Source of the DNA: Eledone cirrhosa
Taxonomy: Eukaryota
Length of the DNA: 64,000 bases
Direction: 5' to 3'
Assembly: GCA_964016885.1 (NCBI GenBank)
Contig: CAXHJY010001168.1
Coordinates: 39,411 to 103,410, forward strand
The position numbers were made by a program, and so were the translations under genes. The notes below the pieces were generated by a model. That model searched no databases. It had not been told where the DNA came from and was given only the letters and a program-made list of their open reading frames with translations. Position 1 is the stretch's first letter; each line of letters opens with the position of its first letter. Shown here one piece after another: positions 25,761-45,618 of the stretch.

Positions 25761-26168
25761 GAGAGATGACCCCTTAGCCTTTGTCAAGGCAGAATTCTAG
25801 GAGAAGGAAAACTCTGATATAACACCTGCAACCCTGATGGTATCCAATGATGTTGACTTGTTCTTCTTTTTGGTAAATATCATCTTGGTTAAGAGAGTGG
25901 GACTGGCTTTGTGCAGTGCCCTTGCTCACTATAAAAGCTTCACGGCACAGGCATTGCTTTATATCTGGAGATCTCTCTGCACTTGTCGTCATATGGTACC
26001 ATGGGCCCAGCACTATGTGTCAATAATTGTCACAAGTGTAGTGTTTGTACCAGAGTTTTCAAGTCGCTGGCTGGACTAAAAAGTCACACTCGTTCAGCGC
26101 ATTGGTAGGGGTTCCCCTACATGTATATAAAGTAGTGGCCGTACTCGAAAACGAGTTGGCAGCCACCA
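25761..26168 (+). mobile_element. Bipartite non-autonomous RTE derivative, copy 1 (5'-truncated)
   Basis: Starts GAGAGATGACCCC, ends GGCAGCCACCA, flanked by (TA)n. Confidence 0.88.
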
Positions 26169-26210
26169 TATATATATGTATATATATATGTATGTATATA
26201 TGTATATATG

Positions 26211-26773
26211 TGTAGTGACCTACATTCCGCGGGCTCACATACATTCTCTGTGCGTGATTTGACTCAGTTCAGCCAATCAGCGCCAGTAGAAGAGGATGTA
26301 TCCCTACGCGCCCTGAGGAAGAATTTCCCCGCGAAGATTTGAAGAATCTCTCTCTTGTACCAGAAAATTCAAGCCAGCAACACGCATAATGTAACGGTGA
26401 GATATTGCAACCTAGCCTCGCCGGCTTAATGGCGCAATGGCACATTCCCTTTTGTAACCTCTTCTTATCTGTAACTTCAACCATATAAGTTAACAAACAT
26501 TGTTTGTGCTACATCAAAAATAAACATACATTTCATCTCTAATTTCTGCTGTTGAAATCATTTTTATGTTACTCGTGTCTCAATAACATCTGTAATCCAT
26601 GCTGCTGGAATTGGCGACCTGACGAAAGGAATATTGTAAATAGATCGAGGGACCTTCCCTCACGTCTGTCAACAAGATAATCCAACGAGGATACTATCAC
26701 TTACCACACTGACCACGACTACTTAATAATCTACCCTGTTAAAGTGGCGACCATCTAATAATCAACCCTACTA
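26211..26773 (+). mobile_element. Candidate LTR-retrotransposon LTR remnant
   Basis: Begins TGTAGTGA; contains CCAATC, CATATAAG and AATAAA in LTR order, then two TGGCGACC (PBS-like) motifs. Lies between TA tracts. The 3' CA end is not clean. Confidence 0.4.
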
Positions 26774-26942
26774 AATATGTATATATATATATATATATAT
26801 ATATATATGTATATATATGTATATATGTATATGTATGTGTGTGTGTGTGTGTGTGTGTATGAATGTATGAGTGTGTGTGTGTGTGTGTGTGTGTGTGTGT
26901 GCATATGTGTATGTATGTATGTATGTATGTATATATATATAT

Positions 26943-27549
26943 GTCAGGTCACCAGTTGGTGCTACTGGTAACATGTATCCCAGTACAACCTGTCTCATGG
27001 TCGGGTCGTTGGCGACTAAACTGACAACCCCACCAAGGTTTCTTGGTGAGGAGGGTGACTTTGGACATCCTGCAGGACTAAAAACAAAACCTGTCAAAGG
27101 GCAAAAGAGCTATTAGGAGTCAATGGCCATCCAAAATCACCGGGAGAGATGACCCCTTAGCCTTTGTCAAGGCAGAATTCTAGGAGAAGGAAAACTCTGA
27201 TATAACACCTGCAACCCTGATGGTATCCAATGATGTTGACTTGTTCTTCTTTTTGGTAAATATCATCTTGGTTAAGAGAGTGGGACTGGCTTTGTGCAGT
27301 GCCTTTGCTCACTATAAAAGCTTCACGGCACAGGCATTGCTTTATATCTGGAGATCTCTCTGCACTTGTCGTCACATGGTACCATGGGCCCAGCACTATG
27401 TGTTAATAATTGTCACAGGTGTAGTGTTTGTACCAGAGTTTTCAAGTCGCTGGCTGGACTAAAAAGTCACTTGTTCAGCGCATCGGTAGGGGTTCTCCTA
27501 CATGGATATAAAGTAGTGGCCGTACTCGAAAACGAGTTGGCAGCCACCA
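26943..27549 (+). mobile_element. Bipartite non-autonomous RTE derivative, copy 2 (full length, ~607 bp)
   Basis: Starts GTCAGGTCACCAGTTGG, carries the RTE-5'UTR-like TCTAGGAGAAGGAAAACTCTGA and the 3' zinc-finger remnant [17 protein letters not shown], ends CTCGAAAACGAGTTGGCAGCCACCA. Confidence 0.9.
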
Positions 27550-41845: not shown

Positions 41846-44800
41846 ATCTATCTATCTATCTAAGGCGGGTAAAATTCCCGAGATCCATGGACGAGTTCTC
41901 TCCAGCGGTCTCTGTCCCTCATTATCGCTGCCATATCCTGCATCTCCAACAGACCAGTGTCTGTCCTTAGGGCATCAACATATGTTAACCTTGGTCTTCA
42001 TCTTCTAGTGTGTCCATGTAGGGGCTCCCACAAGAGCACTGAGTGCAATGTCAACTCTGGATGTCGGTGAGCATGTCCAACCAACCTCAGTCTTCTCTGT
42101 GTCACTTTTGAGCTGACTTTTGGGATGCTCCCATACAGCTCTGAGTTTTTCATCCTCAGTGTATACGGATTAATGTTCAGAGCCATCCTCAGCATTCTCG
42201 TGTAGCACCCATCCACCATCTGAGTGAGTCTCTTGGTCAGTGTCCAAGTCTCAGACCCATACAGCAGCACAGACTCCACTACAGCAATGAAGAGGCGGAT
42301 TTTCAGGTCTCTACGAAGGTCCGACTTCCACACCGACCTCAAGCTGTGACACGCCGCCCAGGCCTTGCTCTTCCTCTCAACCACATCATCTTCCGTATTC
42401 CCAATCTTTGCTCCCAAATACAGGAAGTTCTCAACCAATTCCAGCGGCTTCCCGCCCACATTAGTGATCCCCTCTGGCTTCTCAACATTCTCTACCAGAT
42501 ATTTTGTTTTAGTCTCATTCATTCTCAGCCCCACACTCATCGACACAGTCTCAACCTCCCGCATCAAATCCTCTGCCTCCTTCACTGTATTTGTCACCAA
42601 AACTATGTCGTCGGCAAATTCAGCATCCGATACCGTTTTCGCCCCAACTCTCCTGCTCTGAGCCGGTGCTACAGTAAAGCCAGAGTCCTGGTGTTTCTCC
42701 AGTGCAAGACGCATACAATAGTCCACTACAATGATAAAAAGGTAGGGAGCCAATGTATCTCCCTGGAGCACTCCAGCCAGTATCTCAAAGAACTCTGTCA
42801 TCCCATCAGGTGTAATGACTTGGGCCTTGGTGTTGGTGTAGAGCAGTGATATCAGGTCCACTATCCTCTTGGGGATTCCATAAGCCTGTAAGATCTTCAT
42901 CAGGCAGTAACGGTCCACAGAATCAAAGGCCTTCCTAAAGTCAATGAAAACCATGACCGCAGGAAGGCACTTTGCTCTAGCTCTCTCTAATATCCTCCTC
43001 AGCATCAGAATGTGACTGGTGGTTGATCTACCCTCTCTGAAGCCGTTCTGGTTGTCCCTGAGCTTCTTCTCCATCTCAGGCTGGATCCTGTTAAGAATCA
43101 TCCTGTTGAGGGTCTTTGCCACAAGTGACGTCAGTGAGATCCCCCGGTAGTTGTTGGTGTTAGAGAGATCTCCCTTCTTTGGCACTGGGACGATGTTACT
43201 GATCCTCCACTGATTCGGGGCAACTCCTTTCTCCAGTGCCCCGTTACAGAACCCCAGGATGATATCATCAAAATCACACCTCTTCATCACCTCTGATGCC
43301 ACTCCATCCTCTCCATGAGCCTTGCCCTCCTTGATCTTCTTCTTGGCTCTCTGAAGCTCCTCTCTGGTGAAGGGCTCTGTCTCAACATCCTGTTCCTCAA
43401 ACAGCCGCCTGATCTCCCCAGTGCTCTGGGCTGTGGAGGGTGGCTCTCCTAGTAGGGTCCTAAAATGGTCTAGCCATTTCCTCTTCCTATCCTCGGGCCC
43501 CGTTCCCTGGATCTGACTCGAACACCTTTTGTTCCTCCCTGTGATCTCGTTGATGATCATCCAGCTCTCCTTACATCCAGATCTGTCAACCGCTCTCTCC
43601 ACACTTCTGATCTTCTCTATCAGTGCCTCCTCTCTGACCTCAGTGTAAGCGGTACAGATCTCTTCCCTCATCACCTCCACAGTCTCCATCCTCTCCTCCG
43701 TAGGATCAGCATAGAATTGGTCACTGGCAGCTTTCAGGTGTTCTCTGGCTGTACACACCTTTGGGTTTGCAGAGCTGACGTGCTTCCCTTTGTTCTTTTT
43801 CCTCGGCACCAGGGTTTCACTTGCTTTCGCCACTGCATTGGTGAAGTGCCCGTACCTCCTCGTCACACTCTCCTCAGTCCATCCAATCTCTCTCTCCTTT
43901 GACTCTCCACACAGAGCACTAAACCTGTTTCTCACTTCCACTGTGAACCTCTCCTGTAGCTTATCATCTTCCTTGAAAGCTCCCCAGTCATAGATTGTTA
44001 TCCGGGGCTGAGCCTTGCTCTTTCTTAAGCTCACGCGGACCTCATTCATAACCAGCCGGTGGTCACTACCCAGTGTACTGAAATAGCTGTATGGTTCCGT
44101 GTTCAGAACACTATTCCGCCACTTTTTCCTCACCAGAATGAAATCAATCTGCGACTTGGACAGGTGCATATCTGAGATGTAGGTCCACATCTTCCCCAGA
44201 TTCTTCCTAAACCTTAGGTTGGTCGCCATCAAGTTCGCCTCCAGCAGGGTGTCTCTCAGTAGTCTTCCATTTCGGTTGGTGTTGTTATGGAAGTACCAGC
44301 AAGGATCTTCACTGCCCTCCTTACTCAGATGTGCATTGAAGTCCCCCAAAACAAGCAGGATATTGTGTGCCTGAGTGGTGTTGACAGCTCTACACACCTC
44401 CTCATGGAACTCCTCGGCATTCACATCACTGTCCCCCTCGGTTGGACTATAGGCTGAGATGACTGTCAGTCTTGGGTTTCCATTGAAGGTCACCCTCAAC
44501 ACTCACGGGGAGATAGGCATTATTTCCCTCACCAACAGATTGGTTTTTGCACTGAACACAAAACCCACTCCTCCTACTGCAGCATTTGTTGTGTTCTTCA
44601 CTGCCGATGTAGTGATGAGCTGGCTCTTCCTCCCGATCATCACACTCCTCACGGGCTCATCGTGTAGAATCCTGTGTTCTTGGATCGCAAGTATCTGTAT
44701 ACCACTCTCCTCGAACAGATGTCCCAACTCCTCTCTCTTCTCCAGCGTTCGAATAGTCCTCACATTCAAAGTGCCCATTTTGATGGCTCTTCTGCAGGAC

Positions 44801-45169
44801 AAAACTGCATTCTTTATATTTGTCTCAGAGACAGCTGATCCATCATCCACTGGCCCTCTCTGTGGCTCTAAGCCAGCAGAGTCATAACGACCAGGCTGCT
44901 CCTTGACAGTGTAATTAGGGGCTCTAACCCTAGTGCTGTTAGATCGACTCTCCATATTTCTTTTCAATGGCTGACAATACCTTACCGGCGCCACTCGAAT
45001 AAGGTAGTTATTTGACCCATAAATGGAGCCCTAACAGGTACTACCACCCCGGGCCAGGGCAGACCTGGGAGTCATGACAACTAAGGGGTAACTCCACATT
45101 CCCCACATCTCCTGAACTCCCGAACTGGAGCCTTGCCACTGGATGTAGTTTAATGTCATACCCAGGACA
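41846..45169 (-). mobile_element. Full-length RTE-group LINE (APE + RT, ~3.3 kb) with (ATAG)n tail, in (TA)n
   Basis: 5' end TGTCCTGGGTATGACATTAAAC. The single ORF runs directly into TAGATAGATAGATAG. Both flanks are TA microsatellite. Confidence 0.9.
41860..44955 (-). pseudogene. APE-RT ORF with two in-frame TGA stops (44503-44505 and 41998-42000)
   Basis: GTLNVRT, LAIQEHR, AYSPT, LGDFNA, SQIDFIL, GSDH; NYRGISL, FIDFRKAFDS, GVLQGDTLAP, FADD, FLYLG, LYGSETW, RRLRLVGH. The frame continues past the stop as *RPRLTY..DRDRWR..PP*. Confidence 0.9.
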
Positions 45170-45497
45170 TATATACATATATATATACATATATACATAT
45201 ATATATATATATATATATATATATATATACATATATATATATATATACATATATATATACATATATATATATATATATATATATGTATATATGTATATAT
45301 ATATGTATATATATATATATATATGTATATATGTATATATATATGTATATATGTATATATATATGTGTATATATATATACATATATATATACATATATAT
45401 ATACATATATATATACATATATATATATACATATATATATACTTATATATATATACACATATATATATATATATATATATATATATATATATATATA

Positions 45498-45618
45498 TAC
45501 CAGAGTTTTTAAGTCGCTGGCTGGACTAAAAAGTCAGACTCGTTCAGCGCTTCGGTAGAGGTTCTCCTACATAGATATAAAGTAGTGGCCGTACTCGAAA
45601 ACGAGTTGGCAGCCACCA
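45498..45618 (+). mobile_element. Bipartite RTE derivative, copy 8 (3' 120 bp only)
   Basis: TACCAGAGTTTTTAAGTCGCTGGCTGG...GGCAGCCACCA between TA tracts. Confidence 0.88.

Follow-up and report, generated by a model that had tools for sequence, protein, structure and literature searches.

Eight co-oriented copies of a short element lie in TA-rich DNA

We analysed a 64-kb stretch of the genome of Eledone cirrhosa (contig CAXHJY010001168.1, positions 39,411 to 103,410; hereafter the window), in which a sequence-only reading had reported eight copies of a short non-coding element that appeared to derive from RTE-type long interspersed elements (LINEs). Copy 4 (c4, 29995..30603), full length with 609 nt, was used as the reference throughout. 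Comparison of c4 with the window by blastn yielded eight matches of 128-622 nt, located on the + strand in every case, and the remaining matches in the window did not exceed 31 nt (E at least 0.11). In all eight copies (c1-c8) the 3' terminus consists of GCCACCA followed by TA/TATG repeat, exactly as the sequence-only reading had stated. Its account of the 5' ends, three in common and five distinct truncations, was likewise confirmed. The common start at GTCAGGTCACC is present in the full-length copies c2 (26943..27549), c4 and c6 (38003..38611), and the other five copies begin at inner points that are all different, near positions 18, 31, 123, 200 and 490. Copy c1 (25759..26168) is truncated at about position 200, c3 (27567..28103) is devoid of the first ~30 nt and has a 40-nt inner deletion, c5 (37289..37775) is truncated at about position 123, c7 (40270..40890) lacks the first 17 nt and carries an inner duplication with a 36-bp period, and c8 (45498..45618) retains the final ~120 nt only. 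The copy starts listed previously held in general, with the exception of that of c1, which is most likely 25759 rather than 25761 (GTG versus GGG in the reference). The 3' end is intact in 8/8 copies and the 5' end is shortened in five of them. Divergence from the majority sequence amounts to 1.0-4.1%. Pairwise divergence is 1.4-8.3%, which makes it unlikely that the copies are an echo of the assembly process.

Four of the seven spacers between the copies are pure microsatellite (17, 1891, 227 and 1658 bp), the shortest being a 17-nt run of pure TA between c2 and c3. The other three (774, 6685 and 4607 bp) carry elements, among them a 556-bp non-simple insert in the 774-bp spacer. The description of the locus as a (TA)n-spaced array is therefore accurate for four spacers but not for the three that are occupied by other elements, including two LINEs on the opposite strand. 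It is a cluster more than an array.

The element is very probably a non-autonomous RTE derivative

The front of the element had been likened to the 5' untranslated region (5'UTR) of RTE elements, and this proved correct. In c4, a conserved RTE 5'UTR domain lies at 30210..30253 (+). It comprises the blocks TAGCCTT and AAGGCA and a 23-nt exact match (30231-30253), such that blocks of 7, 6 and 23 letters are identical with the RTE-derived part of OegopSINE when compared by eye. The motif TCTAGGAGAAGGAAAACTCTGA is present in the seven copies long enough to hold it, with one change in c3, and the core motif was found 74 times in the alignments of RTE elements and short interspersed elements (SINEs) in the supplement of Kojima 2018 (PMC5786205).

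The back of the element contains a 57-codon frame (30370..30543, +) with one C2H2-like finger (30466-30537) and a stop, which is likely the end of an RTE open reading frame (ORF). The finger matches Pfam zf-C2H2 with an E value of 5.1e-05 and 23.9 bits, under the cut-off of 25.2. This frame is the entire coding capacity of the 609-nt element; neither a reverse transcriptase (RT) nor an endonuclease is encoded. A predicted stem-loop follows (30570..30603, +; GTGGC..GCCAC with a CTCG-AAAA-CGAG top) and reaches the GCCACCA end, with a z score of -1.75 and 9 of 200 shuffled sequences folding equally well. The C2H2 remnant and the hairpin noted earlier are therefore both present, but the finger frame is broken in c2, c3 and c7. 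SINE2_Gav also ends with GCCACCA, and its tail has been derived from RTE-11_AMi (Kojima 2018, PMC5786205).

No tRNA gene was found in the element by ARAGORN, and a search against Rfam returned 25 weak matches, none at gathering score and none to a head of the tRNA, 5S or 7SL type. This rules out a SINE with a small-RNA head, Ceph-SINEs included, and agrees with the earlier statement that RT and tRNA head are missing. With respect to a 5' self-cleaving ribozyme, which some RTEs are reported to carry, Rfam gave no ribozyme match, and a loose descriptor for ribozymes of the hepatitis delta virus type gave 69-93 candidates per copy, with no top candidate beginning at the first G. Neither approach provided anything convincing. 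Neither the 98 nt at the 5' end nor the conserved domain folds better than shuffled sequences do (z -0.97 and +1.10).

An autonomous RTE sharing both ends, as presumed by the sequence-only reading, was not found in the window, among proteins, in contig scans or among the loose ends shown for the best-matching sequencing run (X1, see below). When the finger remnant was compared with longer proteins, none of nine candidates passed, and 110 phmmer hits with the remnant all had at least two finger matches; judged by these multi-finger matches, none of the hits was a LINE. A C2H2 finger terminated none of 120 relatives of the 3.3-kb RT-encoding LINE in the window, which excludes that LINE as the partner. 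The 25-nt 3' pattern had no match in metagenome and viral contigs, and no ORF-like loose ends were present among the 14 of 355 rows shown for run X1. Because the parent RTE did not turn up, we infer rather than observe that the element is bipartite. The 5'UTR motif, the GCCACCA parallel and the TA-flanked truncations in run X1 bear out the proposed RTE-derived, non-coding, 5'-truncated retroposon, and we conclude that the element is very probably a non-autonomous RTE derivative.

The family in public sequencing runs

We compared four of 24 listed sequencing runs, of which X1 was the best holder of the element. In X1, 18,062 of 16,517,967 contigs fit. Summed depth was 0.88-1.76 million along the whole element versus 11-22 for single junction contigs; this sum is not a copy number. 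With overlap between contigs allowed for, the depth suggests a family of thousands of copies.

Eleven junction rows shown for X1 join a TA-type flank to nine inner positions. They belong to the small share of junction rows with the best support (15 of 43 and 12 of 93), and they were scored on reference flanks of the G-type (more G than C on the + strand), which pure TA also fits at the 85% cut-off. Five of the eleven fall at 30192-30195 in c4 coordinates, where c1 begins and the conserved RTE domain starts. A stall site, an RNA end or a short subfamily are candidate reasons for this recurrent 5' end.

The joint of the c7 duplication (30466 to 30432) had a depth of 1885.5 in X1, ~100x that of a single junction. 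The duplication is absent from the other seven copies in the window, and in X1 it is a family-wide marker. In addition, four window variants segregate at ~9-16% of depth in X1. The depth of the c7 joint and the segregating variants indicate that the copies came from several sources and were mostly separate arrivals. An exception may be c2 and c3, which have two derived sites in common that are not listed among X1 variants at >=5%.

In the run search, the stretch was detected in 20 rows belonging to 17 studies, and 18 of these rows contained at least half of its words. Two contig runs from other organisms contained 2 and 15 records with depths of ~6 and 10-32, near the family majority. In a third run, searched as raw reads (1.9 Gb, ~1 in 100 of the run, in a sample that differs from the holder), depth was found in 3 of 30 bins, all of them TA flank. 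Horizontal transfer was dropped as an explanation on the basis of these three runs, in which the body of the element showed either sparse traces close to the majority or no signal; the traces look like carry-over of a high-copy repeat. Such traces in runs X4, X6 and X21 could pass for horizontal transfer in word-index searches. There were no RNA runs among the listed holders, which therefore have no bearing on expression.

A strand-asymmetric tail likely travels with the element

Simple repeat accounts for 44% of the window. All eight copies reside in TA tracts, and the ~17 kb at 8014-25305, where most of the DNA is non-simple, contains no copy. The claim that the element targets (TA)n is in keeping with this distribution, but residence in TA is not peculiar to this family: seven further LINE pieces, as well as four fold-back elements, lie within or adjoin the same tracts. 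The field had been taken to be strand-symmetric, which it is not: the simple tracts of 25300-45810 contain 831 G versus 102 C on the + strand. The G skew extends over ~38 kb, in copy-bearing and copy-free parts alike. The TA tracts of the first 7 kb (1-6913) are C-type (50 G, 285 C), those over most of 6915-64000 are G-type, and short C-type blocks occur elsewhere, for example at 40050-40269. Adjacent to the copies, seven 3' flanks are G-type, one is pure TA and none is C-type; on the 5' side there are four G-type flanks, three that are pure TA where they meet the copy, and a single C-type flank.

Immediately downstream of the c4 end lies a G-type 20-mer (30604..30623, +) that holds three Gs, is strand-asymmetric, and recurs in the tails of c1, c3, c5 and c7. 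In c4, c5 and c7 it adjoins the end, and in c1 and c3 it is separated from it by 8 nt. Thus, the 20-mer is found within 30 nt of five of the eight ends, and simple tracts elsewhere (21,551 bp) do not contain it. In 20,000 random draws from G-type tracts, a 20-mer shared five ways was never obtained. For c1, c3 and c7 the 20-mer is present on the 3' side only and hence likely came with the element. The tail of c6 is of the G-type and does not contain the 20-mer.

The tract between c3 and c4 (28104..29994, +; 217 G, 0 C) contains 15 copies of the 20-mer and is likely an expanded tail. In the tract between c4 and c5 (30604..37288, +) the 20-mer is repeated on both sides of a 4.2-kb LINE (7 and 11 copies), which likely split this tract. 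The 20-mer-rich tracts after c3 and c4 are bounded on the far side by c4 and c5; growth of tails by slippage, with later copies inserting into them, would produce this arrangement. We conclude that the asymmetric tail likely moves together with the element, a link newly noted here. Adenosine-to-inosine editing was rejected as the source of the Gs in the tails, since A>G changes were not in excess in the bodies of the copies (6 A>G versus 5 T>C).

Possible causes of the common orientation

The explanation that we favour, with confidence somewhat short of even, is that the co-orientation stems from pairing between tail and target during priming, with the non-autonomous RTE derivative being copied in trans. 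An RTE LINE elsewhere would supply an enzyme that binds the 3' stem-loop, nicks at TA and copies the element in trans by target-primed reverse transcription. The TA/TG tail would be part of the element RNA, and its G-studded UA sequence would find its best pairing partner in the CATA-type strand of a field skewed towards TATG, tails of earlier copies that have grown being included. Tails would lengthen by slippage into kb-long tracts. Pairing would fix the direction where the target has a G/C skew and leave it free in pure TA. Re-insertion beside the element's own 3' end and the TATG asymmetry of the field had been proposed as separate causes of polarity; they amount to one idea because the tail itself is of the TATG type, and as a candidate this combined idea fits.

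The other LINE pieces, with terminal repeats of different kinds from that of the element, are mixed in strand, both in 25.0-52.4 kb (2 + and 3 -, Fisher p 0.035) and in the whole window (3 + and 4 -, Fisher p 0.026). Pairing between tail and target has been proposed for RTE retroposons (PMC6007223), and RTE tails are described as seeding microsatellites (PMC2887409).

Several points weigh against tail-target pairing. The polarity is that of one locus, which was chosen for looking polar, and G skew and copy orientation are confounded in it. The region 46039-64000 has 1229 G and 74 C on the + strand and no copy of the element, which consequently does not explain the whole field. Copy c7 is oriented + behind a C-type flank, the tract upstream of c8 leans towards C (10 G, 15 C), and three of the eight tails are devoid of the 20-mer. 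The truncation points coincide with short TA/TG-like overlaps, such that some of them could be later deletions. No LINE in the window shares ends with the element by blastn. Finally, copies of Bov-B are rarely flanked by a target resembling their own 3' repeats according to a 2026 paper (PMC13295347).

It is doubtful that the element is a self-addressing retroposon, that is, one in which the asymmetric tail seeds and enlarges polarised TATG fields and also primes one-way insertion into these tails, giving interstitial head-to-tail chains with no need for a sequence-specific endonuclease. The literature leaves it unsettled whether RTE RNAs choose their site via base pairing of the 3' repeat (PMC6007223, PMC13295347). 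A high-copy family with an asymmetric tail in asymmetric fields allows a genome-wide test, in which direction should follow flank skew. A positive outcome would also help to explain the origin of long TATG-type microsatellite fields. Otherwise, the element would be a further RTE derivative, either uncatalogued or auto-catalogued, within a repeat hotspot.

As an alternative to pairing, the TA tracts could be a passive sink, with a high-copy RTE derivative landing at any TA and the uniform direction being a lucky draw. We regard this as possible, if rather unlikely. RTE endonucleases are reported to favour TA, a symmetric target (PMC13295347), the LINE pieces and fold-backs mentioned above share the tracts, and in a very high-copy family some clusters will be uniform. 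The sequence-only reading had put the chance of co-orientation at 1 in 128. The arithmetic is right, but the figure is post hoc for one locus. Before correction for windows scanned, p is 0.008 for eight and 0.016 for seven independent copies. Chance is opposed by the mixed directions of the other LINEs (Fisher 0.026-0.035) and by the inserted-letter strings at the X1 5' junctions shown, a biased subset in which five of the six strings contain G but no string contains C.

Insertion could also have been symmetric and followed by a filter, inverted near-identical pairs having been lost in fragile TA, or transcription or replication direction could have imposed a regional strand bias on both A-to-G change in the field and the direction of insertion. 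Taken together, these two variants appear improbable. A filter would find suitable substrates in copies that are 96-99% alike and 0.02-7 kb apart. Close inverted Alu pairs are known to be lost, but their depletion is mild at kb spacing, which tells against this variant. The ~38-kb extent of the G skew, regardless of whether copies are present, speaks for a regional cause; however, the single-copy LINEs lie both ways, and a regional bias should have acted on them even though a pair filter would not.

Local multiplication, either by unequal crossover in the microsatellite or via two-unit read-through transcripts as in Bov-A2 dimers, is in our view quite improbable. The two common derived sites of c2 and c3, 17 nt apart and unlisted at >=5% in X1, agree with it, as does the 20-mer common to five tails, and an exactly duplicated 74-bp island elsewhere in the window would indicate that such fields do duplicate locally. 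On the other side, c2, c4 and c6 are 2.5-2.6% apart in pairwise comparison and have no derived site in common, variants that are shared among copies cut across neighbour pairs, there are five distinct 5' ends, and the c7 subfamily marker is missing from the other seven copies. Local duplication, which had been considered as a cause of the polarity, is therefore disfavoured, c2-c3 perhaps excepted. A satellite or tandem array produced by local amplification was dismissed, as the spacers of 17-6685 bp are irregular and neighbours are not closest to each other save for the c2-c3 sites.

Relation to known systems

The element is of a known kind, its polarity is a modest, testable twist, and the asymmetric element-linked tail is new here. 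Bipartite non-autonomous RTE elements (RTE-N2_Lch, RTESINE1/2, WALLSI3, MAR4_MD and Bov-A; PMC5786205) likewise have an RTE 5'UTR front, an RTE-like 3' end and a microsatellite tail, and are devoid of a small-RNA head and RT. Of the features of this group we found a 5'UTR-derived front, lack of RT and endonuclease, multiple copies, a fixed 3' end and variable 5' truncation. Unstable TA repeat flanks the copies on both sides and would mask any target-site duplications. The element differs in that it keeps ~57 codons with a C2H2-like finger and is chained in TA fields, an arrangement undescribed in the portion of that source available to us. The Ceph-SINEs OegopSINE and SepiaSINE (PMC5786205) have the conserved RTE-derived domain in common with the element, with the 23-nt exact match in the case of OegopSINE. 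In contrast to Ceph-SINEs, the element lacks a tRNA head, and its domain is situated 200 nt inside a non-tRNA leader.

RTE-2_OV from Octopus vulgaris (Petrosino 2022, PMC9115989), an RTE that combines a C2H2 finger with microsatellite sequence in its 3' region, represents the type of partner expected. Its microsatellite starts where the ORF ends, whereas 60 nt intervene here. The motifs of our element were not found in the four of eight supplements of PMC9115989 that were searched, and the RTE-2_OV sequence may lie in the others.

Waldo (ACAY), Mino (AC), Kibi, Koshi and Dong (TAA) also occur inside microsatellites (PMC3812793), and the ACAY of Waldo is the complement of a TATG/TGTG-type strand. 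They are autonomous, belong to other clades and have a specificity that is credited to the endonuclease; the element in the window, in contrast, is non-coding and may be steered by its tail. SaTar and Micron (PMC5907723) and MuTAnT of plants likewise form clusters that are modular and non-nested, with (TA)n as the link. However, SaTar, MuTAnT and Micron are DNA transposons with terminal inverted repeats and without 5' truncation. The words orientation and polarity are absent from PMC5907723.

In a literature search we came across no report of this element family, nor of polarised RTE-derived chains within TA; the comparison did not extend to Repbase, Dfam or the O. vulgaris library. Same-facing head-to-tail chains with variable 5' ends are formed by tandem Alu in A-tails and by HeT-A/TART arrays. 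Those elements use poly(A) tails, with enzymes that are either of L1 or telomeric, whereas the tail here is an interstitial TA/TG repeat.

Neighbouring elements in the window

The 4.2-kb Dong/R4-like LINE between c4 and c5 (32578-36792, -) encodes RT and zf-RVT without an APE match and has a frameshift near 33437-33495. Its leader contains a 97-bp direct repeat. The spacer between c7 and c8 harbours the 3.3-kb endonuclease-RT LINE (41849-45165, -), which has a (TAGA)n tail, a stop near 44503 and a best relative that is 78% identical, together with a 405-bp CR1-like piece (40925-41329, -) labelled from its translation only. A CR1-like LINE with a (GTAAAAGA)n tail is located at 49730-52322 (+). 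A CR1-like 3' fragment at 25045-25305 (+) is related to it, and another at 1525-1576 (-) is 96% like the end of this long copy. A further RTE-like 3' fragment (5623-6725, +) has a (TGA)n tail abutting TA tracts, and its 241-aa piece had no Pfam match. We assume the clade labels RTE, CR1 and Dong/R4 for these neighbouring LINEs from domain layout, not from a tree. The LINE types in the window match those listed as recently active in O. vulgaris and, together with the SINE and LINE tails, would fit an octopod host.

Fold-back elements resembling miniature inverted-repeat transposable elements are located at 25410-25671, 49199-49660, 53590-54040 and 54860-55350, with inverted arms of 50-190 bp and 75-100% identity. 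The first of these is related to 13449-13552 and weakly to 49199-49660. The exactly duplicated 74-bp island mentioned above (1784-1857 and 3708-3781, 1924 bp apart) has ~1.2 kb of similar TA flank and reflects either local duplication or an assembly echo; an 83% copy of it is present at 23082-23149 (-). By eye, a short SINE-like repeat (GAGTTCAAATCCC...GGGGTCGATAAA) is recognizable in many decayed copies in the non-simple DNA at 8500-19900 and 23200-23380.

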